A stretch of 32,000 bases of DNA, from contig NC_003240.1 of assembly GCF_000009705.1 (NCBI RefSeq), positions 60,001-92,000 of the forward strand, given 5' to 3'. The DNA comes from Nostoc sp. PCC 7120 = FACHB-418 (GTDB taxonomy: Bacteria; Cyanobacteriota; Cyanobacteriia; Cyanobacteriales; Nostocaceae). Of this stretch, positions 2-19,846 are shown in pieces (position 1 is the first letter of the stretch; each line of letters opens with the position of its first letter). Below the pieces are notes generated by a model, which was given only the letters and a program-made list of their open reading frames with translations, was not told where the DNA came from and did not search any database. The position numbers and the translations under genes are program-made.

Positions 2-151
2 GCAGTTATCCGTCACTCAGAACGATTAGCTACTGAATGGGAGGTAAAAGCTTGGAATGTTCCAACCTCCCTAATTCTTGAATGCGCCGTCAAAGATTTA
101 AAGGAATCAAGCAATGCAACTATCTCTACTAAATCTACCCTACAACGATGA
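2..151 (+). CDS. 3' end of an upstream ORF (partial, unknown function)
   Basis: Frame 2 is open from the window edge (AVIRHSERLATEWEVKAWNV...STLQR) to the TGA at 149-151. It overlaps the ATG at 114 by 38 nt. No recognisable motif. Confidence 0.3.
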   Translation, partial: AVIRHSERLATEWEVKAWNVPTSLILECAVKDLKESSNATISTKSTLQR

Positions 152-1169
152 TAATTCACCCATAGCAGATATTTTTAATATTCCTAACTTAGAAAAAGCA
201 GAATTCCTCCGTAATTTAGCTGCTTCCATGCAGCCAACAATCGACCAAAAGAAAAATCCTGCAATTGGAAATCAAAGGGTAACAAAGCGTCGTAAAACTA
301 TAGTCCAAGGGATAATTCAAGAAGGAATTGAACTTGAGATTATCCAGTCTTGGTTATTTGCGATCGCACAAATGTGGGAAACAGGAAATATCCCATTAAT
401 ACTACGCGGTATATCTCACAAATCGCAAGTAGAAGCCCTATTTAGGATTTCCCAAATGGGAGAAACAATTCAGAAAGTCCACGAAAAATTGGCAGGCGAA
501 TATTACCAAGACTGGGTAAAGTCTTTAAGTCGCGCCGGATTACATACACCAAGCGAAATCATATCCGCAATAACAGAAATTCAACAGGTAGTAAAACCTG
601 AAGCAATTGATACTACTAAGGAACTACTCAATAAGCTTGAGTTAGAAATCATTGACATGAAAGATGAAGATTTCTTCCCTACTCCTAAACTAGTCTGTCA
701 ACGGCTTATTCAACTGGCAGATATTAAACCAAATTGGCAAATTTTAGAGCCTAGTGCTGGTAGTGGAAATATTGCTGAGTATATCACTAATACCTACCCT
801 AATGTTCAACTAGAGGTGGTTGAGATTAATTACGATTTACGACAAATTCTAGAACTCAAAGGATTTAATCTCGTAGGGAAAAACTTTCTGGAGTTTAACC
901 CCAGTCATTTATACAATGCCTGTATCATGAATCCTCCATTTTGTGAACTTGTCCAACATATCTACCAGGCTTGGAAGTTACTCGTAACAGGTGGTGTATT
1001 AGTTTCAGTTATACCTGAATCAGTTTTCTTCAATCGTAAGTACAAAACCTTCAAAGGCTGGCTACAAGCCAATAATAGCTATGTAGAAATGGTAGATAAA
1101 GATGCCTTTTTGAGTTCAAATAACCCTACGAATGTAGCTACCAGAATCATTAAACTCATTAAACCATAG
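114..1169 (+). CDS. SAM-dependent N6-adenine DNA methyltransferase, with no cognate nuclease visible (orphan)
   Basis: The C-terminal half has motif I (ILEPSAGSGNIAEYI) followed by motif IV (CIMNPPF), the order typical of N6-adenine MTases. The N-terminal ~190 aa are unassigned. The start is uncertain because of the overlap with the upstream ORF. Confidence 0.7.
   Translation: MQLSLLNLPYNDDNSPIADIFNIPNLEKAEFLRNLAASMQPTIDQKKNPAIGNQRVTKRRKTIVQGIIQEGIELEIIQSWLFAIAQMWETGNIPLILRGISHKSQVEALFRISQMGETIQKVHEKLAGEYYQDWVKSLSRAGLHTPSEIISAITEIQQVVKPEAIDTTKELLNKLELEIIDMKDEDFFPTPKLVCQRLIQLADIKPNWQILEPSAGSGNIAEYITNTYPNVQLEVVEINYDLRQILELKGFNLVGKNFLEFNPSHLYNACIMNPPFCELVQHIYQAWKLLVTGGVLVSVIPESVFFNRKYKTFKGWLQANNSYVEMVDKDAFLSSNNPTNVATRIIKLIKP
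360..367. repeat. HIP1 octamer GCGATCGC (one example of many)
   Basis: Exact GCGATCGC here and at 4381, 5284, 7912, 8486, 10413, 10830, 11439, 17050, 17091, 17350 and elsewhere. High HIP1 density is a cyanobacterial genome signature. Confidence 0.8.
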
Positions 1170-1788: not shown

Positions 1789-2781
1789 ATGGCAAGGAAT
1801 CAAACAAAGCCTACTAATTCTGCTACTGAAGAAAGCACAGTATCCCAGTCTGAACCCCCTGAACAAACAGTTCAGAATAGTACAAACATACAAAAGCGTA
1901 AATTAGCTATTTCTAAATTTGCAAATCCTGAGTACAATGCGCCGATTAGTAACATCTGCATCTGCCAAGTCATTAACCACATGGAAGCAGAAAAAGTCGG
2001 GTTGTTTATCAAAGATAAATACTTAGCAGCAATTAACTGGCAAGGACAAGAACCTACACACAAGCACACTTTCTCTAGTGGCACGCCAGAAATGGGAGTG
2101 TTGTTGCAATCGCCCAGGATGCACATTCTTGATGTCTCTCCCAGATACATTGAACAGCGCGATGACGGCAAGATTGTAGGAGTGTACGAATCACCTGATG
2201 GGTACGAAATGTACCAAGCACTTGGCAAAGATGCCGCAGTATTGAGACGGTTTTATTTGTTGCAACTTGTTGATGAAAATAATCATAACCTGCACTCAGT
2301 ACCAATTGTCCTATCAATTAAAGGCGTTGCATCATCAAAATTTGGCGAGGCTTATAAACAGTTCCAACGCGAACTAGAGGTTGCATTCGCCCGATTTACT
2401 GATACGACTGTTGCTGAAAAACGTGCAGAGTTTCATCGTCTCGGTGTATTTCAACCCACCTTTACGCCATCTCTTGAACCTAAAGAAGCAGTCAACCAAA
2501 GAGATAAATCTTGGGTAGCAGTTGTCACTTCCTATAAATCACCGAACCCCGATGGCAGCGATTTTCTTGAATTCTTCTCAGAAGGCAAAGAAATCGATAT
2601 CCAAACAACAATGCAGGCAAATCCCGAATTCTCTCATCGCATCGGTAAAACATCAACTGTTATAGCAGAACATAATCGCCTGGTAGGTGCAGCTGATATG
2701 CCAGTAGCAGCACTTCCTCCTAGTACAGCAGGTCAAACTTATACAGCATACAGTACTGAGATGGAAGAACTGCCCTACTAA
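1789..2781 (+). CDS. hypothetical protein (330 aa) with an acidic-aromatic C-terminus (EMEELPY)
   Basis: Long ORF that is first in the + strand run ahead of dnaN. No family recognised. Confidence 0.6.
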   Translation: MARNQTKPTNSATEESTVSQSEPPEQTVQNSTNIQKRKLAISKFANPEYNAPISNICICQVINHMEAEKVGLFIKDKYLAAINWQGQEPTHKHTFSSGTPEMGVLLQSPRMHILDVSPRYIEQRDDGKIVGVYESPDGYEMYQALGKDAAVLRRFYLLQLVDENNHNLHSVPIVLSIKGVASSKFGEAYKQFQRELEVAFARFTDTTVAEKRAEFHRLGVFQPTFTPSLEPKEAVNQRDKSWVAVVTSYKSPNPDGSDFLEFFSEGKEIDIQTTMQANPEFSHRIGKTSTVIAEHNRLVGAADMPVAALPPSTAGQTYTAYSTEMEELPY

Positions 2782-2860: not shown

Positions 2861-4231
2861 ATGAAACTAAGCATTGAACAATCTAAACTCGCAGAAATTC
2901 TAGAAACCGCTTATTTCGCAATTAGTCCTAAGCCCACTGACCCAATTTTAGGAAATATCTTACTGATAGCAAATGAAGATGGGATAGTATCAGCAACAGG
3001 AACAAACCTTAACCTCACAATTCATACTACAACTACGGCTAATGTAGAAACTTCAGGTCAGGTAGCACTACCAGCCAAACTATTAACTGACACTATTAAC
3101 AATGTCAGAGGAGAAATTACCTTAGAGGTAGAAAACCAAGCCTGCATAATTACTCACAATAGCGGTAAATGCCGTCTGATTGGCGGAAAACCTGACGAGT
3201 TTCCAACTCTTCCCAAAGGAGAAAATCCAATAGAAGTAAATTTAAGTGCCAAGAAACTCCAAGCCGCACTTGAAGGGACACTATATTGCACCAATGGTGA
3301 CGAAACAAAGTTAGTTCTAACTGGTGTCAACTTCAAAATTGATACTAATAAGTGGCAAGCTGCTAGTACAAATGGTCACAAATTAGCACTAGTCACAGGA
3401 ACACTTGATAGCGAATATTCTGACCCAATTGACTTTACTGTTCCAGGTAAGTCACTTAGTGAGTTAAGCAAAATTCTCTCTCAAAGTGCTGATACAAGCG
3501 TGTGCAATATTCTTCTATCAAATAAAACTATTGAGTTTAGTCTTCCTCACACAAAAGTCATTTCCCGACTTTTAGAGGGAGAATACCCCAAAATCAATAG
3601 CTTGATTCCCAGAACATTTGAGTATGAATTTACATTAGAACGCAAGGGATTTGAGAGCGCACTGAAGCGGGTAAGTTATCTAGCCGAACGCAAGCAAAAG
3701 GTTGTCAAAATTCTCTGGGAATTGGAAGCTACACAGGCAACACTATACACCGAAGCTACTGATATCGGGGATGCAGTTGACTCGGTACTGATGAAACCAG
3801 CAACTAATCATTCAGAAAACATCAGTATTGGATTAAATATCGACTACCTTCTCGAAGGATTAAAGCACATTAGTACTGATGAAATCGTGGTGCGGTGTAA
3901 CAAACCCACGCAACCAGTCATTATCTGCCCAATGGGAGGACTGCTCAATCAGTTGTATCTAGTAATGCCTGTAGAAATTAAGCAGGGGTTTGAAAATAAA
4001 TCCACCCCAAGCAAAACGACAACAGCAGAGAAAACTCCTGAAGCATTGGAAACAACAGAAACTACTGTAGTAGCCGAACTAGAAGAAGCCATAAATAATA
4101 CTCAGACTTCTCAAACGGAAAGCAATGGTGAAACCTCTGAAGTAGAGACATCAACAGCTGAGGCCAAAGCTAGTAACAAAAGTAAGCCTAGTTCGCGTAC
4201 ACGAGCCAAGAAAGAGGCTGCTTCTGTATAA
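2861..4231 (+). CDS. dnaN: DNA polymerase III beta subunit (sliding clamp) with a ~82-aa low-complexity C-terminal extension
   Basis: The N-terminus MKLSIEQSKLAEILETAYFAISPKPTDPILGNILL and the canonical C-terminal ...LYLVMPVEI are typical of DnaN. The extra T/E/S-rich tail lies at 3983-4228. Confidence 0.9.
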   Translation: MKLSIEQSKLAEILETAYFAISPKPTDPILGNILLIANEDGIVSATGTNLNLTIHTTTTANVETSGQVALPAKLLTDTINNVRGEITLEVENQACIITHNSGKCRLIGGKPDEFPTLPKGENPIEVNLSAKKLQAALEGTLYCTNGDETKLVLTGVNFKIDTNKWQAASTNGHKLALVTGTLDSEYSDPIDFTVPGKSLSELSKILSQSADTSVCNILLSNKTIEFSLPHTKVISRLLEGEYPKINSLIPRTFEYEFTLERKGFESALKRVSYLAERKQKVVKILWELEATQATLYTEATDIGDAVDSVLMKPATNHSENISIGLNIDYLLEGLKHISTDEIVVRCNKPTQPVIICPMGGLLNQLYLVMPVEIKQGFENKSTPSKTTTAEKTPEALETTETTVVAELEEAINNTQTSQTESNGETSEVETSTAEAKASNKSKPSSRTRAKKEAASV

Positions 4232-4264: not shown

Positions 4265-4293
4265 GAATTTCAAATAAATCATTGGAAAGAACT

Positions 4294-5583
4294 ATGTACC
4301 GACCACTACATCTCAAATACCGTCCCCAGATTCTTAGTGAAGTTATTGGGCAAGAACATATCGTTCGCACTCTCATAAATGCGATCGCATTCCAAAAGAT
4401 TGCACCTGCTTACCTATTTAGTGGCCCCAAAGGTACAGGTAAAACCAGTACCGCCCGCATCATCGCTAAATCTCTTAACTGTCAATCAAGCAATGAGCCG
4501 ACAACTAAGCCCTGTGGAGAATGCAATTCATGCAAGGGAATTACGGCATCTTCTTCTGTTGATGTAACCGAACTGGATGCAGCAAGCAATAGTGGGGTAG
4601 AACTGATCCGAGAGCTTATATCCACTACCCAATTTGCACCAGTGGAGAGTAGATTCAAAATATTCATTATTGATGAATGTCATGCCCTAAGTAGCCAATC
4701 GTGGCAAGCACTCCTCAAAACCATTGAAAGCCCTCCCCGTCATGTAGTATTTATCTTCTGCACAACCGAGTTACACAAAGTTCCAGAAACGATTGTCTCC
4801 CGTTGCCAAAAGTTTGACTTTAAGAGAGTTCCTGTCTCGCTAGTTGCAAGCTACCTAGAAAAAATATCTCACCAGGAAAGTATCAACATTGCGCCATCAG
4901 CAGTTACCGCCGTAGCTAAAGCAAACAAGGGACATCTGCGCGACTCACTCAAACTGTTAGATCAGCTAACCTTACTAGGTGAAGAGGAAATTACCTATAA
5001 CTGGGTTTGGGAACTATCAGGCACTATTCCCGAATACGATCTACTCACCGTCTGTGAAAATATCATCAAAGGAGAAATTACGGGGAATTTAGGCATCCTT
5101 CAAGATTGGATTGAATCTGGTAAACAGCCAACTGCTATCCATACAAGTCTTGTCAACTTCCTCAAAGACTTACTTGTGTGCAAAACTAATCCCAATGGCA
5201 GACATCTTACACAGCTAGAACAGGACACCTGGGAGGAATTAGTAAGTATCTCGCAGTTGTGGAATATCGACCAGATCCGAAACGCGATCGCAATCTTAAT
5301 GGCACGCCAAAGTCTCATGCGGGATGAAGACGCGCACCTTTGGTTGGAAGCTACACTTATCGAGATAGTGCCAACCAACAAGGGTAGTCACCAATCACAA
5401 CCCTGGAAAGATTGGAAAACTGCTCAAGATGCAATTAACTGGGGCAAGGAACAGTTACCCCACTTAACACAAGCGCAGTTACAAGAACACTGGCAAAAGC
5501 TGACACCTATTAATGGTAAAAAGGCACCTGCTTGGGTAGAAGCTGTCCAAAAGCTGCAACAAAAACAATTACAGCAAGCTTAA
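4294..5583 (+). CDS. dnaX: DNA polymerase III gamma-type clamp-loader subunit (short DnaX, no tau C-terminal domains)
   Basis: MYRPLHLKYRPQILSEVIGQEHIV, Walker A GPKGTGKTS, zinc module CGECNSCKG, Walker B FIIDECH, and SRC (VSRCQKF). I prefer the ATG at 4294 to the TTG at 4282. Confidence 0.9.
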   Translation: MYRPLHLKYRPQILSEVIGQEHIVRTLINAIAFQKIAPAYLFSGPKGTGKTSTARIIAKSLNCQSSNEPTTKPCGECNSCKGITASSSVDVTELDAASNSGVELIRELISTTQFAPVESRFKIFIIDECHALSSQSWQALLKTIESPPRHVVFIFCTTELHKVPETIVSRCQKFDFKRVPVSLVASYLEKISHQESINIAPSAVTAVAKANKGHLRDSLKLLDQLTLLGEEEITYNWVWELSGTIPEYDLLTVCENIIKGEITGNLGILQDWIESGKQPTAIHTSLVNFLKDLLVCKTNPNGRHLTQLEQDTWEELVSISQLWNIDQIRNAIAILMARQSLMRDEDAHLWLEATLIEIVPTNKGSHQSQPWKDWKTAQDAINWGKEQLPHLTQAQLQEHWQKLTPINGKKAPAWVEAVQKLQQKQLQQA

Positions 5584-5692: not shown

Positions 5693-6319
5693 TTAGGCAA
5701 CCTGCATCAATTCCATACATTTCTTTGAAAGTTCGTCTGCCACTGACACAGATTCTACATCAATACATATAAATCCGAGATGTTCAACCTTCTCCCTCAT
5801 GCGTTTATTATATAATAAGGTACGGTCTAAAAACTTTTGAATTAGGTACTTTTTATCCTCACTTACATTATAAAAATTACTTTCACTAAAGATTCGGTAA
5901 GAGAAGAGTTGGTCACTAGCCGTAAGCCAAATCGCTTTAACACCATTTTCGCTAACTAAATTCGCTACAAATTCAGGCCATAATGCAGAGCCTTCAAGGA
6001 TAAGGCATTCCGTTGATAAATCAGACGCATGAGAATGAACGATAATCTCGACTTGCGGTAACACATTTTTCTCATAATGCGACAATACATCTACAAAAAG
6101 AGCGTCAACAGACAAAGTTCCATAATGTTCTGCTACGTGTTCTGGAATAGCATTTCTATTTGCACCCACCCAAGGATGTCCAGGATGCCGAGCGAGTTTG
6201 TCTGTAGAACGATAACTCCAACCAAGCCTCGCCGCCAAAGATTGGCCAAGGGTGGATTTGCCTACATGAGAGGAGCCACCAATTAAAATCACTCGTGTTT
6301 CATTGCTTAATTCATTCAT
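5693..6319 (-). CDS. P-loop NTPase / small-molecule kinase-like protein
   Basis: Walker A motif LIGGSSHVGKST near the N-terminus. The size (208 aa) fits the kinase-like P-loop families. This is the only minus-strand gene between dnaX and polB. Confidence 0.6.
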   Translation of the reverse strand: MNELSNETRVILIGGSSHVGKSTLGQSLAARLGWSYRSTDKLARHPGHPWVGANRNAIPEHVAEHYGTLSVDALFVDVLSHYEKNVLPQVEIIVHSHASDLSTECLILEGSALWPEFVANLVSENGVKAIWLTASDQLFSYRIFSESNFYNVSEDKKYLIQKFLDRTLLYNKRMREKVEHLGFICIDVESVSVADELSKKCMELMQVA

Positions 6320-6461: not shown

Positions 6462-8279
6462 ATGAGTTATAACCACAGAGATTTTGTGAGAAAATCTAGA
6501 GGGATAATCGTTGTCGATGAAGACAAACTAAACATTTATTGGAAAGATCCCTCTTCAATAAAACCTTGGCAACCCAAAATACAACTCAAGCCATACCAGG
6601 AACTTTCACAAATATTTGTTGATATCGAAACAGCAGGAATCAACTCATTTGAAAGCCGTATTTATGCTATTGGTTGTATGGATTCAAGGGGATATTCTAC
6701 TATTTTCATGGATATCTCAGAAGCTAAAATACTAACCAAATTTATCAACCATCTCAGTAAAAGAAATCCAGATGTAATTTTCACATATAACGGGATGGCA
6801 TTTGATATTCCATTTATTATTACTCGATGCAACTTGCACGGTATAAAACACCCATTTAAAGTTGCATCCAAATCTCGGACTATTCGTACCGCCCAAGTAC
6901 GGGGCGAGCCACTAAAAATTCAGGAGGTGTTCATCCGAAATAGCCAACACGTAGACATTTATATCTGCGTTCTGAGGTGGGATTTCATAGCCAAAAAGCT
7001 AACTAACGGCAGATCGCTCAAAAAGGCTGTATTGGACATGGGACTGCGCCAGAACACCAGGCTAGTTCTTCCCTATGAGGAAATCCTCGCTTGTTGGAAA
7101 GATGGCCCCAATAGCAAGGGATGGAAACGGCTAAAAGAATATCTTATTTACGACCTTGAAGACACCCGGCTAATTGCAAATAGACTTGTACCCTCATACT
7201 ATTACGAAGCACTAATTGTACCGGAAATGAATCTCCAGCAGCTAACACTTGCTGGTAATGGTACTAAATGGGAACGAATATTTGAGCATCATTATCCAGG
7301 TTATAAACCAAAACCCCATCGCAAGTACAAATTCCAAGGAGGGATGGCTTACTCTATTCCTGGATTGTATAGAAGGGTTGGATATGCAGATATTAGCTCA
7401 ATGCATCCTTGGGCAATGCTAGACAAGGGTATTTGCTCAATTAAAGATACAGAACGTATTGGGCTAAGTATTCTGCAATATTTGGTAAATGAAAAATTTA
7501 GGTTGGAACAACTTGCATCTGCTGGAGATGTTGCTGCTAAGGAAAAAAGAGAATCAGTCAAGGTTTTAGCTAACTCCGAATTTGGATTCTTAGGCACCTC
7601 TGAACTCGCCTTCAATGATATGGAGGCTGCTGCATTAGTTACAGCCTACAGTCGAAAAGTACTCAAGCTAATGATTGAAATTATCACGCGGTACGGCGGT
7701 ACTCCTGTGGAAGTTGACACAGATGGAGTGTTCTTCACACATCCCAACCCAGAAGAGGTACGTAGTTTACTTCAATCTCAATTGCCCAAAGGGATAACTG
7801 TCAAGCTAGAGTTTATCGCTGACGCTATGTTTATCCCCGAACGGGGAACCAAAAATTACCTTTTATGGCTTCCAGACGGGAAAATCATCACTAAAGGCAA
7901 CTGGCGCAACCGCGATCGCTCTCAACTAGAGAAAGAGTTTTCTATTGAGTATTTAACCCTGCTAATTCAAAATGTATCAGCAGCAGAAGATTATTATGCA
8001 CACATCAAATCCCAGATTTTATCAAGGGAATATCCAAAAGAAAAACTTGCAATTACACGCAAGATTAAAGAGGGCGAAAAAGAAATACTCAAACTAGGGA
8101 AACCTGGAGATGTAGTAACTTACTATTACGGAATTAGCGGCATAACCAATATCAGCAGTAATGAGAATTACTCACGTCAATACTATCTTCACCTTATTGA
8201 AAAAAGGCGAGAAGAAATTCTCAAAATAGCTGCTCCTACAACACTAGAAAGTAACAAACGTCAATTATCTCTTTTCTAA
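6462..8279 (+). CDS. polB: compact family-B DNA polymerase with 3'-5' exonuclease motifs and a C-terminal QLSLF clamp-binding motif
   Basis: ExoI FVDIETAG (aa ~54), ExoII YNGMAFDIPF, ExoIII YLIYDLED, pre-motif A FQGGMAYSIPGLY, motif A YADISSMHPW, motif B KVLANSEFG, motif C VEVDTDG, KxY TKNY. The last five residues are QLSLF. Confidence 0.85.
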   Translation: MSYNHRDFVRKSRGIIVVDEDKLNIYWKDPSSIKPWQPKIQLKPYQELSQIFVDIETAGINSFESRIYAIGCMDSRGYSTIFMDISEAKILTKFINHLSKRNPDVIFTYNGMAFDIPFIITRCNLHGIKHPFKVASKSRTIRTAQVRGEPLKIQEVFIRNSQHVDIYICVLRWDFIAKKLTNGRSLKKAVLDMGLRQNTRLVLPYEEILACWKDGPNSKGWKRLKEYLIYDLEDTRLIANRLVPSYYYEALIVPEMNLQQLTLAGNGTKWERIFEHHYPGYKPKPHRKYKFQGGMAYSIPGLYRRVGYADISSMHPWAMLDKGICSIKDTERIGLSILQYLVNEKFRLEQLASAGDVAAKEKRESVKVLANSEFGFLGTSELAFNDMEAAALVTAYSRKVLKLMIEIITRYGGTPVEVDTDGVFFTHPNPEEVRSLLQSQLPKGITVKLEFIADAMFIPERGTKNYLLWLPDGKIITKGNWRNRDRSQLEKEFSIEYLTLLIQNVSAAEDYYAHIKSQILSREYPKEKLAITRKIKEGEKEILKLGKPGDVVTYYYGISGITNISSNENYSRQYYLHLIEKRREEILKIAAPTTLESNKRQLSLF

Positions 8280-8367: not shown

Positions 8368-9150
8368 ATGAAAAATAAATCCGCTTCTCGCAAGCCCAGA
8401 CTTAATAAAAAGCAAAGGGCTTGGGTAAACTCATTCCTTTCGTCTCATCCTAATGCCAGAGTTAGAACTATCTACGAATTAGATGGCGATCGCGTAGTTC
8501 AAATTGAGTGGTGGGAAAACACAAACCCAGTAATATTAGACCCAAAAACTTACATCCAAGGAATTATCAGCTACAACATGTGGGTCAAACTAAGAAAGTC
8601 TGGCGACCCCAGGAAAACAGCTGAGTTTTCTTATCGCATTACCCCACCAGAAAAACGAAGTGCATCATGGCACTTAACAGGTCAACTCTCTCTAGAACTT
8701 CCCCAATGTTACGAAGTTACAGAACCAAACAACCCAGTTATCATTAAACCAAAAAGGAGAAATGCTCAAACCAAAAAAGTTAAAAAATTTCTTCAATATA
8801 CTCTTCCTTTATCAGAAATTAGTGTTCAACTTCATACTACAAATATAGAAGATAATGGTGTTACTCTATCTGGACAAGAAATATTACTAGAAAACACATC
8901 GCAGCTAAATTTAGATACTGGTAAAGACACTAAACTTCCCGAAGCTATAGTCAAAAGTCTCTCAGAGAAACAAGCCGACTTAAAGGAATGGGAAACAGCC
9001 ATTACACTATACGAGGTAGCTGGTTATAGTGGAGTAATAGAGTATCTTCAACAGTTAGATTCTTGGCGCAAATACTTGGGTAATAAACCAGTAGATAACC
9101 ATATTGATAAAGACTCAATTCAAAATTTCGTACAACCAGTACAAACTTAA
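8368..9150 (+). CDS. hypothetical protein (260 aa) with a basic N-terminus and an internal QLSLEL
   Basis: Long ORF between polB and holA, followed by a good terminator. No family recognised. Confidence 0.55.
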   Translation: MKNKSASRKPRLNKKQRAWVNSFLSSHPNARVRTIYELDGDRVVQIEWWENTNPVILDPKTYIQGIISYNMWVKLRKSGDPRKTAEFSYRITPPEKRSASWHLTGQLSLELPQCYEVTEPNNPVIIKPKRRNAQTKKVKKFLQYTLPLSEISVQLHTTNIEDNGVTLSGQEILLENTSQLNLDTGKDTKLPEAIVKSLSEKQADLKEWETAITLYEVAGYSGVIEYLQQLDSWRKYLGNKPVDNHIDKDSIQNFVQPVQT

Positions 9151-9273: not shown

Positions 9274-10233
9274 ATGCCAGTATACCTATACTACGGCGAA
9301 GATACCTATTCGCTCAATCAAAAAATTAACCATTTGGTGAATCAAAATGTTCATGCTGAATGGAAAGATTTCAACTACATCAAGCTATCTGGAAATGAGA
9401 AAAATATCACTGCCAAGGTTTTTACTGAGGTTATGACTTTGCCCTTTGGAGATGGTAACAAAATTGTTCATACAGACAGCGATCATTTAATTGAAAGTTT
9501 ATCAAATGAGGATAATAACCAAGAACTTGAAAATCAACTTTCTCGAATACCTGCAAGTAACATTCTTTTAATTGCTAGTAACAAAAAGCCAGATTCCCGC
9601 AGAACAGTAGTAAAAACTATCCTAAAATATGCTCAACAAGAAGAGTTTCCTCTCGTTCCTTGTTGGGATAAAAAGGGGATAGTTAATTTGATAGGAAAGT
9701 ATGCAGCTATCCATCAAGTTAAACTTACACCGGATGTGACTGATTATCTAGTCGAAGCAATTGGTAATAACACTGCAAGAGCCGATAGCGAATTTGCTAA
9801 ACTTGCTGTCTATGCAATTGAAAAAATTATTTCCCTTGAGGAAATAAAACAATTAGTTAGTAATCACAATACTGACTACCAAAAGCTTACTATTGCTATG
9901 TTAAGGAATCATTCAAACTTGGCAATAGCACAAGTGGATAAACTACTAGATAGTAATGAACATCCACTCAAAATAGTAGCAACTATTACGTCAATTTTTC
10001 GTACTTGGCTAATAACTAAAGCTGGCGTAGAAGCTAAGTTATCTGACATGAAGATTGCAGAAATAGCCGAATTGAAGAACCCTAAAAGATTGTATTACCT
10101 CAAAGATGAAATCAAGTTTGTAGGCGTTCAAAAACTGAAAAATAGCCTTACCTTACTTTTACAACTCGAAACGGAACTCAAAAGCGGCACTAACAATTTA
10201 ACTAGCCGAATTATCGAAATTTGCACGATATGA
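9274..10233 (+). CDS. holA: DNA polymerase III delta subunit
   Basis: The N-terminus MPVYLYYGEDTYSLNQKI and the LVEAIGNNTARADSEFAKLAVYA segment match the HolA pattern, as does the length (319 aa). Its stop overlaps the holB start. Confidence 0.8.
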   Translation: MPVYLYYGEDTYSLNQKINHLVNQNVHAEWKDFNYIKLSGNEKNITAKVFTEVMTLPFGDGNKIVHTDSDHLIESLSNEDNNQELENQLSRIPASNILLIASNKKPDSRRTVVKTILKYAQQEEFPLVPCWDKKGIVNLIGKYAAIHQVKLTPDVTDYLVEAIGNNTARADSEFAKLAVYAIEKIISLEEIKQLVSNHNTDYQKLTIAMLRNHSNLAIAQVDKLLDSNEHPLKIVATITSIFRTWLITKAGVEAKLSDMKIAEIAELKNPKRLYYLKDEIKFVGVQKLKNSLTLLLQLETELKSGTNNLTSRIIEICTI

Positions 10234-11105
10234 AAAACGACTTATTTACAGAAATCATCGGACAGCATACCGCCAAACTTCTACTAACTGAAGCAATCGA
10301 ACGTAATCAAATTGCTCCCGCATACCTATTTAGCAACGAAGTTGAGGGAGTGGGCAAAGGAAAAATTGCTTTGGCATTTGCAAATGCAATACTCTCAAGA
10401 GGAAGTCGCTCCGCGATCGCAGGAGAATCTAAACATCTAGACATCTTACAAATCAAACCAAGCTATACCGAAAACACCTCCCAGCAGAAAGGTGTACCTG
10501 CTATTCGAGTAGAACAGGTGCGCGAGGTAATTGAATTTCTCTCAACTAGTGCAGTCGAGGGCAAGCAAAAGGTTGTGATTATCCACGAAGCAGATATGCT
10601 CAACCCTACTGCCGCTAACAAACTTCTTAAGACGCTGGAAGAACCTAAAACTGGAACGTTTATTCTGATATCATCCTATCCTCAAAAGCTATTACTCACT
10701 ATCAAGAGTAGGTGTCAAATCATACCTTTCCAAAGGTTAACTGATGAGGAGGTTATTTCTGTCCTTAAAGACCAACAGATTGAGGCAACAGAAAAAATAC
10801 TAGCTATCAGTTCGGGCAGTCCTGGTCAAGCGATCGCCAACATGACAATGTTAGCTTCCATCTCACAAGAAATCACAAGCCAACTCGAAGTACCTCCTGA
10901 CGATATCCTCAAGGCACTCAGTTTGAGTAACTGCATCTCAAGCTGGAATCACCAAACGCAGTTATGGTTGCTTACCTACCTGCAATACAACTGGTGGCAG
11001 AAATTAAAAAGCACTATGCTACTAGCCAAATTCACTCAAGCAAGAAAGCAATTGCTGCATCACGTTACTCCTAGAAGCGTTTGGGATAGCCTACTTCTGC
11101 CATAG
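10230..11105 (+). CDS. holB: DNA polymerase III delta' subunit
   Basis: IIGQHTAKLLLTEAIERNQIAPAYLF, a degenerate P-loop, KVVIIHEADMLNPTAANKLLKTLEEP, and SRC (KSRCQIIPF). The ATG at 10230 overlaps the holA TGA (ATGA). Confidence 0.85.
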   Translation: MKNDLFTEIIGQHTAKLLLTEAIERNQIAPAYLFSNEVEGVGKGKIALAFANAILSRGSRSAIAGESKHLDILQIKPSYTENTSQQKGVPAIRVEQVREVIEFLSTSAVEGKQKVVIIHEADMLNPTAANKLLKTLEEPKTGTFILISSYPQKLLLTIKSRCQIIPFQRLTDEEVISVLKDQQIEATEKILAISSGSPGQAIANMTMLASISQEITSQLEVPPDDILKALSLSNCISSWNHQTQLWLLTYLQYNWWQKLKSTMLLAKFTQARKQLLHHVTPRSVWDSLLLP

Positions 11106-11130: not shown

Positions 11131-11170
11131 ACTGCCAGTTAGAAGTATTTCTAGCTGGCAGTATTTGTTT
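11131..11170 (+). terminator. candidate terminator after holB
   Basis: An ACTGCCAG...CTGGCAGT stem followed by ATTTGTTT. Confidence 0.45.
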
Positions 11171-11183
11171 ACACATAAAAGAT

Positions 11184-11855
11184 ATGAACCAGCAACACAG
11201 TTTATTCAATGTCGAAGAAACCATCCGCAACAGTAAAAACCAAAAAACCAGCGAAATATTAAACCCTAGCACTAGAAAGATACTTCAGTTACTAACCAGT
11301 CAAGGGATTAACAAAGCTGTAACAGCCAGCCTACTCGATCTAGCAGGAGCAAGTCGTGAAATTGTTCAATACATCGCTGGGCCAATTGTCACTCAGCAGA
11401 ACGGCTGGCAACAGTCAATTCCCACTTGGGTTTGGCGCGCGATCGCAGTTGATAGATTAGACGCAGCTTTACAAGAGATAGACAAGGGAGAAGTAGGTAA
11501 ACTCGCCTCTAGCAGCGAAGTCGTTGCACTGATGATGCCAATTGCTTTTGAAGTGCCGCTATCATCTGAATGGACAGATGTTTATCTCTGGGCAAGTTAT
11601 GATGCCCTCGTTAGGCACAGACCTTTCAAGAATTTTAACTATGAAAACCTCTGGGAGAAGATTGGTACAACTCCGGTTTCGTATGACAAAATTCGCTCTG
11701 ATTATGAAACCCTTGCTGCTGATATTCGTTCTCGTGTAGTCAAACACGCGGCGAAAGAGGGATGGGGTAAGAAGTCTTCAAATAACAACAAACACCCTGT
11801 TACAGCAAATTCAACTGAAAGTAATACGAAGATGGAGCAATTGTCACTGTTTTAA
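11184..11855 (+). CDS. hypothetical protein (223 aa) ending in the clamp-binding pentapeptide QLSLF
   Basis: ORF directly after holB. The C-terminus is ...NTKMEQLSLF, and the N-terminus MNQQHSLFNV carries a second motif-like peptide. Confidence 0.6.
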   Translation: MNQQHSLFNVEETIRNSKNQKTSEILNPSTRKILQLLTSQGINKAVTASLLDLAGASREIVQYIAGPIVTQQNGWQQSIPTWVWRAIAVDRLDAALQEIDKGEVGKLASSSEVVALMMPIAFEVPLSSEWTDVYLWASYDALVRHRPFKNFNYENLWEKIGTTPVSYDKIRSDYETLAADIRSRVVKHAAKEGWGKKSSNNNKHPVTANSTESNTKMEQLSLF

Positions 11856-12595: not shown

Positions 12596-13771
12596 TTATT
12601 GTTTTCCATTCAAACGACCTGTTTGATAAAAATCAAGCAGGTTAGGGAAAGCTTTTTGTAGCAACCAGTTCCGCCCAATTTCTGATTCGGGAATATTTGA
12701 AGCAGCCATGTAATAACCACTTCTGTAAGCAGCTACACCCAAACAAGCTTGTAGGCTGGATATAGCCCGTGAAGAAGCTGGAATATCCATCAAATCTTGT
12801 ATATGACTGGGATGATAATTTTGTCCTGCCACCAAAAAATAAACTAAAGTATGAACCAACCGGGATAAAATTACTGTTCGGTCTTGCCAACGCTCTAAAT
12901 GAGACTTGATACAGAAGTAATCAGGTAAATCAGCTGCTTGAGATTGATCAAGGAATAAATCGCTTTGGCTTTCGATAAAACTAGAATCCAGACCTATAAA
13001 CTGTTTTAGAAAAACAAGCGTTTTGCCCCAACGTTCGTGTTCCTTAGTTTCAGGAGAGAACGCACCTTCTGAATATTGTGAGCCATACTTTTCTTGAAGC
13101 TGTACAACTGCCTCTTGATTGATATCACCTTGCCAGTCAGATTTAGCAAAAAATTTTTTGAAAATATCTTTCAAATAAATGGATGAAAATTCACTAATAT
13201 CCGGTGCTTCATCATCAAAATCGTCTTCATAAGTATCAATAAGAAATTTCTCTAACTCGATTTCTAGCTCTCGTTTTCTATTAACTGGCAGTAATGATTT
13301 AGCATCTTCTAATGATAAAGGAAAATCTAAATAAGGATGTCCTTTAGCTAAGTAAGAATCACCCAAATCTGTCAAACTTTTTAGCGCAATAGTCCGGGCA
13401 AAATACTCATCTTGTGGATGTACGCATATCCCATCTAATTCCTTATCCACCAACATCATAGTAATTGCCAGTAGAGCAAACCATGAAGCATCGTGCAAAC
13501 AAGTTGGTAAATCAGTAACTAAATCTACTAACTTCAGTTCTAGGATTTCTCCCCAAACGCCTATCCTAGCGGTATTGGAAACATCACAAAAATGCTCGAC
13601 CTCTTCTCCAACAGATGTTTCTCCTAACCACGTAAGATTTTCTACTTGCAAAGGAGAGGAGTAGTCAGGAGTTAGCTGGTTTTGGCTGTCTTCATCGAAC
13701 TGTATCCACATCAAAGCCAAGAGCATCAGCTTACAAATACTTACTCGCTTCAAGAGAAGATATTCAAGCAT
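12596..13771 (-). CDS. hypothetical protein (391 aa)
   Basis: Long ORF with an ATG start. No family recognised. Confidence 0.55.
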   Translation of the reverse strand: MLEYLLLKRVSICKLMLLALMWIQFDEDSQNQLTPDYSSPLQVENLTWLGETSVGEEVEHFCDVSNTARIGVWGEILELKLVDLVTDLPTCLHDASWFALLAITMMLVDKELDGICVHPQDEYFARTIALKSLTDLGDSYLAKGHPYLDFPLSLEDAKSLLPVNRKRELEIELEKFLIDTYEDDFDDEAPDISEFSSIYLKDIFKKFFAKSDWQGDINQEAVVQLQEKYGSQYSEGAFSPETKEHERWGKTLVFLKQFIGLDSSFIESQSDLFLDQSQAADLPDYFCIKSHLERWQDRTVILSRLVHTLVYFLVAGQNYHPSHIQDLMDIPASSRAISSLQACLGVAAYRSGYYMAASNIPESEIGRNWLLQKAFPNLLDFYQTGRLNGKQ

Positions 13772-14006
13772 AAGTCATTACTTATAATTTTTAGATACAT
13801 ACCACGACATTTGCAATCCCACCATAGCACAGGATAATTAGCCGTTCCTTAGTAAAAACCGCAATGCTATGAGAAACAGAAATAAAAAATAACTCATAAG
13901 TATGAAGCAAAAAGTGTGCTTTAAATAAAACAATTCGTCAAAATGATAAATCCTAAAAGAACTAATGCTGACGCAGCAATAAAAGAAATATATCAATTCT
14001 CGCGTT

Positions 14007-14390
14007 ATGAACTATATCAACAAAGTCATGCTAGTTGGCAGATGTGGACAAGAACCTGATCTGAAATTTTTCGAGTCGGGTGCAGTTAAGGCTTCAATCT
14101 CTATTGCAGTAAGACCGCCCTACAGAAGTGAACAAGCCCTTTGGTTTGATTTAGTCGCTTGGGGAAATCAAGCAGAAGTGATTGGAAATTACGTTCGTAA
14201 AGGAACTCAGATTGCAATTACTGGTGAGTTTGGATTTGATCGTTGGGCTGATAAAAATTCTGGCACTATGCGACAAAAACCTGTAATCACAATCAACACC
14301 ATCGAATTATTAGGTTCACCCCGTAAAGAAGAATCTACATCCACTTCTGCACCAAACGAAACACAGGCTGTAGCTAACGCAAATTTCTAG
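14007..14390 (+). CDS. ssb: single-stranded DNA-binding protein, short form lacking the acidic C-terminal tip
   Basis: OB-fold pattern NKVMLVGRCGQEPDLKFF...WFDLVAWGNQAEVIGNYVRKGTQIAITGEF. It ends ...AVANANF, with no Gly-rich linker and no D-D-D-I-P-F type tip. Confidence 0.85.
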   Translation: MNYINKVMLVGRCGQEPDLKFFESGAVKASISIAVRPPYRSEQALWFDLVAWGNQAEVIGNYVRKGTQIAITGEFGFDRWADKNSGTMRQKPVITINTIELLGSPRKEESTSTSAPNETQAVANANF

Positions 14391-14463: not shown

Positions 14464-14883
14464 ATGATTCATAATACTGCAACTATTAATCTTAAATCAG
14501 TGAACACAACCCACGACAAAGAAGGTTCCTTGATTGCTTTTGGGATTGCTGAATTCTACTACCGTTCCAAGGAAGGAGTCGTTACTGACGAGATACCATT
14601 CCGTTCCAAGGGCGCACCTGCTGTCGTTATCAACGAACAGGGGGAAGGCGTACATGGTACAGCAGAAGGATATCTTGATTTAGTGGTAGATAACAGGGGT
14701 GAGTACAAAGAAAAGATTGCCACATTCGTAATTAAAAACTTTATCTCAGCACAACCGATTAACGAACTTACCCAAGTTAGCAAAAACTCTCACTCGCCTG
14801 AAACTCCCGATTTTGCCAAGGAACTACTCGAAGATAACGTTACTTCGACAAATGAAGACCTAGACGAAGAACCTCCATTTTAG
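14464..14883 (+). CDS. hypothetical protein (139 aa) ending in an SSB-like acidic tip (DLDEEPPF)
   Basis: ORF directly downstream of ssb. Its C-terminus NEDLDEEPPF resembles the SSB interaction tip. Confidence 0.6.
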   Translation: MIHNTATINLKSVNTTHDKEGSLIAFGIAEFYYRSKEGVVTDEIPFRSKGAPAVVINEQGEGVHGTAEGYLDLVVDNRGEYKEKIATFVIKNFISAQPINELTQVSKNSHSPETPDFAKELLEDNVTSTNEDLDEEPPF

Positions 14884-15020: not shown

Positions 15021-15791
15021 ATGTCATCAACCAAAATAATTGCCACTTTCAATCAGTCAGGTGGTGCAGCTAAGACAACTATTACACACAATCTTGGATA
15101 CCACCTTGCTAAAAAACATCGTGTACTGCTTGTGGATATGGACCCACAAGCATCACTAACAGCTTTTATGGGATTAGGAGAAGTCAAGCTGCAAACTGAA
15201 CAAACTATCTATGGCGCGATCGCTGAAGAAACTCCCCTCTATGTATGGGAAAAACCCATTTACGGGATGCACCTTGTGCCTACAAATATACAATTGGCAG
15301 GTACGGAGCAAAAAATTTTCCATGACCTGACCATCGACAACCGCCAACGGCTCAAGTTTGCACTCTCAAATGTACTTGACCAGTATGATTATATTTTGAT
15401 TGATTGTCCGCCTTCTCTAGGAATCCTAAGCATTATGAGCTTAGTAGCTGCTTCACACGTTATTATTCCTGTTGAGACACAATACAAGTGCTATCTTGGC
15501 ACCAATCAACTGCTAGAAACAATTGCCCGGCTTAAAAAAGGAGGACACCAGAAATTACAAATTGCCTGTATAATTCCAACCAAATACGATAATCGTAATC
15601 TTCAAGACACAGGAATACTGGAAGAAATTAAACAACAGGTTGAAGGACGGATACATGTTACTGCCCCCATTCCTAAATCAACAGCTTTTCCTGACGCAAC
15701 CCAAGCACATCTACCACTTGCACTCCACAAAAAAAACCACCCCGCAGTTAGCATACTCGAAGAAATCACAAAATATATCACTCAACTATGA
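15021..15791 (+). CDS. parA: ParA-family partition ATPase with a deviant Walker A lacking the signature lysine
   Basis: IIATFNQSGGAAKTTITHNLG (Walker A), LLVDMDPQ, ILIDCPPSLG. Its end overlaps the parB start by 4 nt. Confidence 0.9.
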   Translation: MSSTKIIATFNQSGGAAKTTITHNLGYHLAKKHRVLLVDMDPQASLTAFMGLGEVKLQTEQTIYGAIAEETPLYVWEKPIYGMHLVPTNIQLAGTEQKIFHDLTIDNRQRLKFALSNVLDQYDYILIDCPPSLGILSIMSLVAASHVIIPVETQYKCYLGTNQLLETIARLKKGGHQKLQIACIIPTKYDNRNLQDTGILEEIKQQVEGRIHVTAPIPKSTAFPDATQAHLPLALHKKNHPAVSILEEITKYITQL

Positions 15792-16735
15792 GCCAAAAAC
15801 GCGAACTAGAAAAACTCACCGGACTCGATAATTTATTTGGAGACGAAGAAGAACAATCCTTATCCGATTCCACTTTACCTTTATCCCAAATCATCCTTCC
15901 GCCGAGTCAGCCCCGTCGCTATTTTGACCCTGTAAAACTCAAATCGCTCGCCAACAGCATTAAGGAAGTGGGTTTATTAGAACCCATAGCCGTCAGAAAG
16001 ATTGAGGAAGACAAGTACGAACTTATCGCTGGTGAACGCCGTCTCAAAGCTTGTGAAATTGCAGGACTTGAGGAAATTTCTGTAGTCATTCTTGAATGTG
16101 ACGAGAAAAAAGCTCGCAAACTCCGCTTAGTTGAAAACCTCCAGAGGGAAGACCTCAACGCTTATGAGGAAACTATCGGAATTCTCGAACTACTTGCCGA
16201 AGAACTCGATCTTGACCAAGAAGCGGTGGTCTCTCTTCTATATCAGATGAATAATGAGACAAAAGGAAATTCTAACCATAACGTTATGGTTAGTGAAGAA
16301 GCACTTGCTATACAAACAATATTCCTCCAGATAGGCAAGATATCTTGGGAATCGTTTGTATCCAACCGCCTTCCTCTACTCAAACTTCCTCAAGATATCC
16401 AAATCACCCTTGAAAAGGGTCAAATCGAGTATACAAAAGCACAAGTGATTGCACGTATCAAGGATAATAAAAAGCGGCAAAATATTTTAAAAAAAGCTAT
16501 TGAAGAAAATCTGTCATTATCTGCAATCAAAGAGTTAGTGGGGGATATTCTCCCAATTCAATCAGAAAACAAGCCGCAGTCTCCCCAGCAACAAAATAAA
16601 GAAAGAGCAAGCAAAATATACAAATCACTGCTTAAGAGCAAAATCTGGGATGACGAGAAAAAAGTAAAAAAAGTTAATCGTCTTTTTGACCAAATTGAAG
16701 CACTTTTAGAAGAAAAGAAGGAGGATGCTTCTTGA
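15788..16735 (+). CDS. parB: ParB-family partition protein
   Basis: ParB-box motifs GLLEPIAVRK and YELIAGERRLKA. The C-terminus is charged. Confidence 0.9.
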   Translation: MSQKRELEKLTGLDNLFGDEEEQSLSDSTLPLSQIILPPSQPRRYFDPVKLKSLANSIKEVGLLEPIAVRKIEEDKYELIAGERRLKACEIAGLEEISVVILECDEKKARKLRLVENLQREDLNAYEETIGILELLAEELDLDQEAVVSLLYQMNNETKGNSNHNVMVSEEALAIQTIFLQIGKISWESFVSNRLPLLKLPQDIQITLEKGQIEYTKAQVIARIKDNKKRQNILKKAIEENLSLSAIKELVGDILPIQSENKPQSPQQQNKERASKIYKSLLKSKIWDDEKKVKKVNRLFDQIEALLEEKKEDAS

Positions 16736-18994: not shown

Positions 18995-19221
18995 CTGTCA
19001 ACAGTAAGTTGATATCTTTTTAAAAACTTTTTCATCTGTACATTTATATAAAATTTAAGTATAAAATTTTACAGAATTTTTTTTGAAATAGCAAAATGTT
19101 AACAGTGAAAAAGGACTCAGTAGATTGACTTGCCAAAATAGGTGTGGTCTTAGTTTGAGGAGTTACAGAAACTAAGTATTTGCAAGAGTCTATTGAGTCA
19201 CTATTTATTTTGACAGGTAAA

Positions 19222-19239
19222 GATGAAACTAAGATGAAA
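19222..19239 (-). promoter_or_regulatory. direct-repeat box a (GATGAAACTAAGATGAAA on +), 228 nt upstream of the response-regulator gene
   Basis: Two heptamers with an 11-bp period. The strand given is that of the presumed target gene. The function is inferred, not shown. Confidence 0.5.
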
Positions 19240-19491
19240 TTCCAGCTATTTCCCGAAAATTTATAAACTGATTTATAAACTATTGGTGTTCATTGTCACA
19301 TCAAGAAAGTTCATTAGCATTATTTTTCTCATATTCGAGTTTGACGCTATACAAACAAACCCTCCATTAACTTAAGCTTCATCGTCATGCAAGCAATAGT
19401 GTATACAAAGCAAATCATGGAAGTCAATTTAATGACAATGAGAAAATCATAGCTACTGATTTTTGGAAATTATTTAAGACAATATCTGAAA

Positions 19492-19509
19492 TTTCATCTT
19501 AATTTCATA
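19492..19509 (+). promoter_or_regulatory. direct-repeat box b (TATGAAATTAAGATGAAA on the minus strand), 338 nt upstream of the PLP-enzyme gene
   Basis: Same 18-mer in the opposite orientation to box a, so it has the same orientation relative to its nearest gene. Confidence 0.45.
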
Positions 19510-19846
19510 TTTATCTTTCAGGATAGAAATATCGAGTCTATTCATGAATGAATACAGGCATTTCTGAGAATTGGCTTGAAAAAATAAACCTGTTAGATAT
19601 TGATTATTAACTAGGAGTGATGCCCCGTAAAGCTGACACACCAATTGCCATAGCACAAAAGCAAACCTACCAATAATTGGGGCGGCTGATTTAATCAGGT
19701 ATTCCAAGACATTTGTACATGACATCAAGTTTATTACAAATATCACTAAATTTAGGCTGTAAATACGACATAAGAGAGCTTTAGCAAGTAAGCAAGTTTA
19801 CAAAGTTGCAGCCACAGTAATTTCCTCATTTGTTTCAATATTCAAT

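Follow-up and report, generated by a model that had tools for sequence, protein, structure and literature searches.

The DNA considered here is a stretch of 32,000 nucleotides from contig NC_003240.1 of Nostoc sp. PCC 7120 (positions 60,001 to 92,000 of the forward strand), referred to below as the window and numbered from its first letter. It holds a plasmid-borne replication module in which the gene for the clamp-loader subunit delta' (holB) is followed, beyond a hairpin, by an open reading frame (ORF) for a protein of 223 amino acids, for which the working name T223 is used. The protein carries a peptide resembling the beta-clamp-binding motif at each of its two ends and, judged by these motifs and by the genes that accompany it, T223 very probably rides on, or docks to, the sliding clamp. 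The gene and its product are laid out as follows.

11131-11162, forward strand: conserved hairpin with a T-rich tract between holB and T223, resembling a terminator or attenuator
11184-11855, forward strand: T223 coding sequence, stop included; a listed ORF, backed by its ratio of non-synonymous to synonymous substitution rates (dN/dS) and by 55 related loci
11193-11207, forward strand: QHSLF, N-terminal clamp-binding-like motif, residues 4-8
11211-11756, forward strand: predicted all-helical core, residues ~10-191 (AlphaFold2), with no Pfam, PDB or Foldseek relative
11757-11837, forward strand: disordered, slightly basic linker, residues 192-218, opening with a conserved GWGKK
11838-11852, forward strand: QLSLF, C-terminal clamp-binding motif of exact consensus, residues 219-223
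Peptides of the two motif regions: MNQQHSLFNVEE; NTKMEQLSLF

The gene and its hairpin

The reading frame starts with an ATG at 11184 and closes with a stop codon at 11853-11855; the protein begins MNQQHSLFNV and ends KMEQLSLF directly before the stop. Both motif sequences and their coordinates had been given exactly in the initial annotation, which had also placed the ORF after holB beyond a hairpin, a structure that proves to be conserved as well. This hairpin has 14 base pairs, a folding energy of -24.7 kcal/mol and a z-score of -4.5, and ATTTGTTT lies directly 3' of it. The stop of holB is at 11105, and once the hairpin has been passed just 21 nucleotides are left before the start codon of T223. 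The structure is kept in the orthologous loci, some compensatory changes among its pairs included, and no second copy of its sequence is found in the window; being unique there, it is most simply viewed as a terminator or attenuator through which the T223 transcript must read.

T223 is a real gene under purifying selection. Over the 794 pairs with dS above 0.1, drawn from 43 distinct full-length orthologs, pairwise dN/dS has a median of 0.17, which together with the conservation of the protein in its orthologs agrees with the earlier treatment of the ORF as translated. A scan of genomes recovered the 55 related loci, nearly all of them in the Nostocales, and a scan of metagenomes a single 1-kb locus. 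An ortholog lies at 112670-113338 on plasmid NC_007412 of Trichormus variabilis ATCC 29413, and Tolypothrix PCC 7601/7712 has one too.

The terminal motifs

The pentapeptide QLSLF has been termed the 'full consensus' beta-binding motif (PMC4549789), the consensus being written as QL[SD]LF or QLxLx[LF] (PMC4549789, PMC12867686). T223 thus contains a consensus clamp-binding peptide at residues 219-223, together with the related QHSLF at residues 4-8. The terminal placement of QLSLF in the window exceeds chance. In the six-frame translation the pentapeptide occurs twice, each time abutting the stop of a real gene, T223 in one case and the family-B polymerase PolB of the same module in the other; in 300 shuffles of the window its mean count was 0.07, and QL[SD]LF followed by a stop appeared in none. 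With the looser pattern Q[LHQ]SL[FL], four of the five matches fall at termini of replication-module genes.

All intact Nostocales orthologs begin MNQQ[QH]SLFD[VI]E, and all end EQLSLF or EQLSLFS with the single exception of one that ends QLSLL. Both motifs are present in every intact ortholog, at identities as low as 49%, which bears out the conservation on which the initial annotation had staked its proposal; even in the ortholog furthest removed from T223, NLTLFEVE stands at the start and RQLTLFE at the end. None of the 43 orthologs departs from Q219, L220 or L222, and 41 of them keep F223, and the codons of the motif residues vary synonymously (TTG/TTA for L220, CTG/TTG/CTA for L222, TTT/TTC for F223 and AGT/AGC for S6).

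The same endings recur among distant homologs. In the 121 listed family representatives of at least 180 amino acids, the pattern Qxx[LIM][FL] is found within the last 15 residues of 64 (53%); internal windows taken from these proteins have it in 0.65% of cases, which amounts to an enrichment of about 80-fold at the terminus. The F-ending form Qxx[LIM]F is found in the last 15 residues of 54, as against 0.08% of internal windows. The usual endings are QLSLF, QTSLF, QISLF, QLDLF, QLALF and QFSLF, and some members of the family have two copies of the C-terminal motif. At the other end of the protein, [LIM]F occurs within the first 40 residues of 49 of the 121 representatives, compared with 16% of internal windows, mostly in the form xSLF[DE]. 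Relatives on plasmids with a PolA-type polymerase start instead with QLNLLTPE or QLSFIPEE, which resemble the hexapeptide clamp motif of the Hda type.

Family and predicted structure

When 1.84 billion representative proteins, clustered at 50% identity, were searched with a profile, 328 proteins or clusters were recovered at E <= 1e-3, 119 of them at E <= 1e-10. By this measure T223 is a member of a large unnamed family of at least 328 clusters, so that the earlier description of a protein with no recognisable family holds insofar as no named family is matched, and fails insofar as the protein is not an orphan. A word-indexed search for homologs, for which the family profile was used, reached only a few of the distant members. 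Pfam has no family match for T223, and 54 diverse members of the family gave only scattered single matches at chance level (E <= 0.1), a lone match to Sigma70_r4_2 (E = 0.05, in one member) being the one of most relevance to what follows. NCBIfam and PADLOC gave no match to T223, PHROGs just two, both to PHROGs of unknown function (E = 0.013 and 0.062), and a sequence profile search of the PDB with the family a single chance-level one (E = 0.087).

An AlphaFold2 model of the monomer, built from the alignment of 54 family sequences, has a mean predicted local distance difference test score (pLDDT) of 88.3 and a predicted template modelling score (pTM) of 0.81, where an alignment of 18 close orthologs gave a pLDDT of only 50. 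Nine helices are placed across residues 10-191. Foldseek found nothing like the model in the PDB (best E = 1.1) or in BFVD (best E = 0.38), with all template modelling (TM) scores below 0.25. Remote homology and structure prediction, which had been recommended at the outset, have been carried through by sequence profiles, AlphaFold and Foldseek, and they find no relative of the core.

Beyond residue 191 no secondary structure is assigned, and residues 192-223, the C-terminal motif included, are predicted to be disordered, with pLDDT falling from 57 to 40 across residues 201-223; the linker itself differs in length and sequence between family members. The N-terminal motif sits just ahead of helix 1, in a segment (residues 1-9) with a pLDDT of about 64. 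In the model the motifs are accordingly found in exposed, flexible terminal segments, as is looked for in a clamp client.

With regard to the core, its charge across the family is neutral to acidic (median net charge -1, pI 6.4), and its conserved positions are mainly hydrophobic or aromatic, with R91, E98, E112 and R182 in addition, a combination that speaks against a domain of the classical DNA-binding type. Three short helices span residues 28-65, and the possibility that these represent a helix-turn-helix (HTH) was rejected because the helices at 44-65 are hydrophobic and have no conserved basic residues. T223 has no cysteine. No relationship emerged when the profile of the family was compared with the N-terminal domain of the module's methyltransferase, with orf391 and with orf260.

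The replication module and its clamp clients

The window is about 95% identical to conjugative plasmids of ~215-300 kb in Tolypothrix, Microchaete, Nostoc, Scytonema and Trichormus. As assigned by Pfam, the module runs from a methyltransferase gene through DUF5895, dnaN, dnaX (433 amino acids) and a variable slot to the gene for PolB (605 amino acids), orf260, holA, holB and T223, after which come two unknown genes on the opposite strand and then SSB, orf139, ParA and finally ParB at 15788-16735. This order is constant in every sufficiently long locus, including that of the Iningainema ortholog (49% identity), and the adjacency of holB and T223 is kept in all loci that extend far enough upstream. 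The genes that bear most directly on T223 are these.

114-1169, forward strand: S-adenosylmethionine (SAM)-dependent DNA methyltransferase starting MQLSLL (motif at 117-131)
2861-4231, forward strand: dnaN, plasmid beta sliding clamp of 456 amino acids, the presumed docking target (three DnaN Pfam domains)
4282-5583, forward strand: dnaX, short gamma-like clamp-loader ATPase (Pfam)
6462-8279, forward strand: PolB, family-B DNA polymerase ending RQLSLF (Pfam, PHROG; motif at 8262-8276)
9274-10233, forward strand: holA, clamp-loader delta (Pfam)
10221-11105, forward strand: holB, clamp-loader delta', immediately 5' of T223 (Pfam)

The plasmid DnaN aligns with solved beta clamps over all three domains (E = 3e-40 with the beta of B. 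subtilis) and retains the conserved strings GHKLA, YP and VMP, which we take to line the peptide pocket. It also has a C-terminal acidic tail of about 85 residues of low complexity (3974-4231), and a similar D/E-rich tail is present on the clamp of a Leptolyngbyaceae element (locus L058, ~13600-13781). Such acidic tails emerge beside the peptide pocket, and basic residues stand directly ahead of the client motifs (KRQLSLF, GWGKK); the acidic clamp tail might in this way tune the choice of client.

Of 39 orthologous loci, 38 keep the C-terminus of PolB as RQLSLF or HQLSLF, and one has QLSLLF. For the methyltransferase, relatives of 35-36% identity start MQLSIFDL on a Microcystis plasmid and MYQLSLFDL on a Gloeothece plasmid, and its conserved motif makes it a further likely clamp client. 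More generally, this family of orphan plasmid methyltransferases looks, from its N-termini, to be tethered to the sliding clamp, an arrangement that would couple methylation to replication. Since PolB, the methyltransferase and T223 share the motif, the module encodes proteins that would compete for the same clamp pocket. T223 had been put forward as the second clamp client of the element, a count that is too low: there are at least three likely ones in the module, given that the MQLSLL of the methyltransferase is conserved in distant homologs too. Where the polymerase is of the PolA type, it has an internal QMSLL or QLSLF near residue 248. The corresponding genes on other elements are the following.

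L082 12001-12828 and L083 11995-13038: methyltransferase homologs on the Microcystis and Gloeothece plasmids
L057 10799-12586, L079 10522-12300 and L080 10428-12224: PolA-type exonuclease-polymerases of ~595 amino acids

On both methyltransferase plasmids a gene for a zincin-like peptidase is adjacent to the methyltransferase gene or one gene off. At the PolA-type loci the relative of T223 precedes the polymerase and is accompanied by an opposite-strand protein of ~100 amino acids ending PELEL or DLEL, and genes for M23 peptidases follow the polymerase in two of the three.

Distant relatives, neighbourhoods and fusions

A tblastn search of a plasmid database with T223 matched 23 plasmids, all of them cyanobacterial and 20 of them conjugative; two strains have two plasmids each, and every one of these plasmids bears its own T223 paralog. 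Relatives are found directly 5' of a PolA-type exonuclease/polymerase at L057, on Nostoc carneum plasmid3 and on pOSC7112.01 of Oscillatoria PCC 7112, with a methyltransferase gene between relative and polymerase on the last. In one cyanobacterial locus the relative immediately follows dnaX. Elsewhere it lies three genes from a helicase-dnaN-dnaX-holA cluster (Leptolyngbyaceae), near holA, holB and SSB (Allocoleopsis) or 8 kb from dnaN (a Nostoc metagenome-assembled genome). On phage-like viral contigs and other metagenomic contigs relatives stand beside ParB-like genes and methyltransferases, those on the viral contigs being shorter, retaining the LF motif at their end and coming just before the portal gene. 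A tblastn search of GenBank phages with two distant family members found no match.

The core also occurs joined to other domains. In two proteins of ~460 amino acids, L069 (9986-11377) and P0170, it is fused to a methyltransferase, and the catalytic domain of L069 is 30% identical to the methyltransferase of the window (E = 2e-22). These two fusions, in which the methyltransferase is of the MTS type, have a common N-terminus, M-x-NPFP-x-P/A...DL, that is not clamp-like. On plasmid p5 of Azospirillum argentinense the core (E = 4e-26) lies inside an uninterrupted ORF of ~9000 amino acids. This giant ORF (L084, record 244195-271188), annotated as 'AAA family ATPase', contains an AAA+ module and DUF6884 along with the T223 core, and there are no stops in the 5510 residues read. 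Several further apparent architectures were not counted: P0061, which joins the N-terminus of holB to the C-terminus of T223, is probably a deletion between adjacent genes, and P0026 (the N-terminus of T223 with a ParB HTH), P0022 and P0027 are probably rearrangements or assembly artefacts.

The presence of relatives alongside PolA-type polymerases, or with no polymerase nearby, led to the rejection of T223 as a PolB-specific subunit. It also qualifies the initial view of T223 as a dedicated client, for which a test of co-occurrence with PolB had been suggested, in that the tight linkage to the clamp, loader and polymerase of the element stands and the specificity for PolB does not, in view of the PolA-type, ParB-associated and fused forms.

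Other features of the module and the window

The DUF5895 protein (1789-2781, forward strand), near the head of the module, has a conserved C-terminal E[EQ]LPY, and on the PolA-type plasmid of Oscillatoria the T223 relative has a DUF5895 gene (L080 1749-2771) at a distance of 7 kb. The DUF5895 protein may serve a further core function in replication, possibly as the initiator. What lies between dnaX and PolB varies: here it is a P-loop kinase-like gene (5693-6319, reverse strand) that is found in only some of the orthologous loci, and in Tolypothrix PCC 7712 it is a class I SAM methyltransferase instead. Between PolB and holA, orf260 (8368-9150, forward strand) has no family match; a relative of it (L073 12938-13714; 28% identity, E = 1.5e-19) lies 2 kb from the T223 relative on a different, dnaN-encoding Nostoc element, and orf260 may be another conserved component of the module.

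Downstream of T223 the annotated SSB (14007-14390, forward strand) has no acidic tip and a conserved end ANANF. Its neighbour orf139 (14464-14883, forward strand; 139 amino acids) ends DLDEEPPF, with D[EQ]EPPF, DEDIPF or ADDIPF in orthologs, an ending that looks like the acidic tip on the tails of bacterial SSBs. No iterons, tandem or direct repeat arrays or origin were found near T223. Further along the window an inverted repeat of 45 nucleotides (19206-19525; 82% complementary, arms 230 nucleotides apart, the right arm overlapping a 90-aa ORF) sits in the AT-rich gap that runs from the rppA/rppB two-component genes to a cysteine synthase gene. Finally, on the Tolypothrix PCC 7712 plasmid (L001 1-2079) genes for a prokaryotic E2, a Mov34/MPN protein and a ThiF-family protein, which together make up a ubiquitin-like conjugation cluster, lie just upstream of the replication module.

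Comparison with known systems

The closest functional analogue of T223 is the C protein of phage Mu, to which it is not homologous. Mu C has near-consensus clamp motifs at residues 2-6 (QHDLF) and at its C-terminus (QPDLF), and mutation of either abolishes clamp interaction, lethality and transcription; on overproduction the protein titrates clamps and disturbs RIDA, DnaA's regulatory inactivation (PMC12867686). Like Mu C and Mor, T223 is a small protein of a mobile element with motifs at both termini in nearly the same positions. Unlike them, it has no Mor or HTH match in Pfam and no match in Foldseek; its core, of ~180 amino acids, is larger, neutral to acidic and free of any DNA-binding signature, and its gene belongs to replisome operons and not to a transcription cascade. 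As a candidate member of the Mor/C group T223 has the two-ended motifs, and the Mor domain was found in none of the 54 family members.

Hda and YabA are regulators that are active only when docked on DNA-loaded clamps, and the N-terminal clamp motif of Hda, of the QLSLPL type, is similar to the sequences with which T223 relatives from PolA-type plasmids begin. T223, in contrast, has neither the AAA+ domain of Hda nor the Zn-binding domain of YabA, contains no cysteine, and carries a second, C-terminal motif. Membership of the Hda/DnaA-related AAA+ regulators was rejected on the lack of any AAA match in Pfam or NCBIfam and on the all-helical predicted fold, and identity with YabA on the absence of the Zn-binding domain. 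TrfA, for its part, is an iteron-binding protein with winged-helix domains. In this plasmid replication initiator of RK2, a QLSLF motif engages the beta clamp during replisome assembly (PMC8034659). T223 is likewise plasmid-encoded and QLSLF-bearing; unlike TrfA, it has no winged-helix domains, and no iterons were found in its vicinity. An initiator of the TrfA/RepA type was dismissed given the absence of a winged-helix match in Pfam, of beta strands in the model and of repeat arrays in the vicinity. A relationship to chi or psi (HolC/HolD) found no support in Pfam or NCBIfam, in PDB sequences or in fold comparison.

Two further comparisons concern architecture. Polyvalent proteins are multidomain proteins of phages and conjugative elements, in the description of which clamps are nowhere mentioned (PMC5512222). 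Like their domains, the T223 core is found solo, fused to a methyltransferase (of the N6-adenine type) and embedded in the ~9000-aa ORF, and its setting is also similar in that its neighbours include ParB_N proteins and methyltransferases, with a zincin-like peptidase beside related methyltransferases. It differs in that the core matches no LPD or other named Pfam domain and that the cyanobacterial copies are part of a replication operon; occurrence both embedded and solo is thus shared with polyvalent domains, and a match to any described one is not. The core of E. coli Pol III, in which alpha and epsilon take one pocket each, resembles the arrangement proposed for T223 in that two motifs fill both pockets of the beta2 ring. 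In T223, unlike the Pol III core, these motifs are on one small non-enzymatic polypeptide, and PolB has a separate C-terminal motif of its own.

Proposed role and alternatives

On balance T223 is probably a two-ended, clamp-docking protein of a mobile element, the core of which serves as an adaptor or regulator, a reading based on sequence and its context and held by a modest preference. In such a scheme T223 would be expressed from the clamp-loader operon, by transcription that reads through the conserved hairpin, and its motifs would enter the beta2 ring's peptide pockets, with the plasmid DnaN, and possibly the host clamp too, as the target. With a motif at each end, a single T223 might occupy the two pockets of one ring, or else connect one ring to another. 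The core would then be parked on DNA-loaded clamps at or behind the PolB fork of the plasmid, where T223, PolB and the motif-bearing methyltransferase would be rivals for the same pockets. The core would also link clamps to element functions on new DNA such as the methyltransferase, ParB-like proteins and the polymerase. A protein-protein adaptor or regulator is favoured over a DNA binder for the core because of its neutral-acidic surface, its fusion to methyltransferases and its recurrent adjacency to ParB. There is also some chance, put rather low, that the core is a novel clamp-handling module by which mobile elements control sliding clamps, for instance as a two-ended cap that hands clamps to the element polymerase or as a coupler of methylation or ParB loading to the fork. 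The use of PCNA by DNMT1 and CAF-1 in eukaryotes offers an analogy for coupling of the latter kind.

Several points weigh against this assignment. Clamp binding by T223 is deduced from motif logic and genomic context, and ParB and the methyltransferase as partners of the core are neighbourhood hints only. At its position 2, which is H or Q, the N-terminal motif is off consensus, and it is not as widespread in the family, with 40% of representatives having it. Neither in the methyltransferase fusions nor in the giant-ORF copy is there an obvious motif at the termini or beside the core, which implies that the core can work without motifs, and in the 6-20 kb around several relatives there is no gene for a clamp, loader or polymerase.

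The same two-motif architecture also makes for avidity and for an occluded clamp face, and would suit a blocker or negative regulator that fills both pockets and sequesters or caps clamps. Such a protein may limit re-initiation or elongation of the plasmid, as a copy-number brake in the manner of Hda or YabA, or it may deny clamps to host polymerases and repair factors as an effector of takeover or establishment. Neighbours of the ParB_N/DUF2958 type are typical of early or establishment regions, and the core is indeed found beside ParB_N and DUF2958 genes as well as in the ~9000-aa plasmid ORF, while the phage relatives of the core-fused methyltransferases are in very large proteins, one weak match among them being named DarB-like antirestriction. 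Low expression, as suggested by the hairpin ahead of the gene, and the effects of Mu C overproduction on clamps and RIDA (PMC12867686) fit blocking too. Against it, T223 belongs to the stable core of large replisome modules that are vertically maintained and for which blocking of clamps would be costly, and it lacks an AAA+, DnaA-like or Zn-binding domain and any cysteine; a blocker is regarded as possible but improbable.

Less probable still is a clamp-dependent activator of transcription comparable to Mu C/Mor or to gp33 and gp55 of T4, for which clamps would deliver T223 to promoters and so couple plasmid or phage gene expression to replication. The occurrence of the family on phages as well as plasmids, with the phage copies just upstream of portal and head genes, and the three short helices at residues 28-65 agree with this, but Foldseek finds no PDB relative, the 54 members yield no Mor or HTH match apart from the one to Sigma70_r4_2, and both the charge of the core and the hydrophobic helices at 44-65 with no conserved basic residues speak against it. 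A comparably small chance is given to the terminal LF motifs having a different partner (ParB, SSB or the clamp loader), or serving folding, degradation or secretion, with a resemblance to clamp motifs that is convergent. That fused and embedded cores show no obvious motif of this kind, and that many relatives neighbour ParB and not clamp genes, would be explained in this way. Nevertheless, T223 has the exact consensus pentapeptide at its extreme C-terminus on a flexible tail, the polymerase in the adjacent part of the module ends in the same motif, and T223 genes repeatedly co-occur with an element-encoded dnaN; the terminal enrichment of about 80-fold and the genomic context make a non-clamp role unlikely.

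Significance

To our knowledge, few bacterial clamp clients are known besides polymerases and repair enzymes. Motif-bearing clamp partners as such are of a known kind; T223 would vary that kind by its two-ended layout and by a core that has no detectable relative. The two-ended layout of Mu C was described only in 2026; to it can be added the large T223 family, which comprises at least 328 clusters, has neither a name nor a structural match, and carries clamp motifs at either end. No paper was found on this family or on the cyanobacterial plasmid replisome module. Plasmid-borne replisome modules of cyanobacteria, with PolB as well as with PolA, include the family as a fixed component, and the range of the family extends beyond these plasmids to phage-like viral contigs, unclassified metagenomic contigs and the giant ORF of Azospirillum. 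If the core does handle clamps, it would represent a new class of bacterial clamp regulator that spans cyanobacterial plasmids, phages and proteobacterial conjugative elements. T223 could thereby inform how self-replicating megaplasmids share clamps with the host replisome or keep them separate, and whether methylation or the assembly of partition complexes is coupled to the bacterial replication fork.

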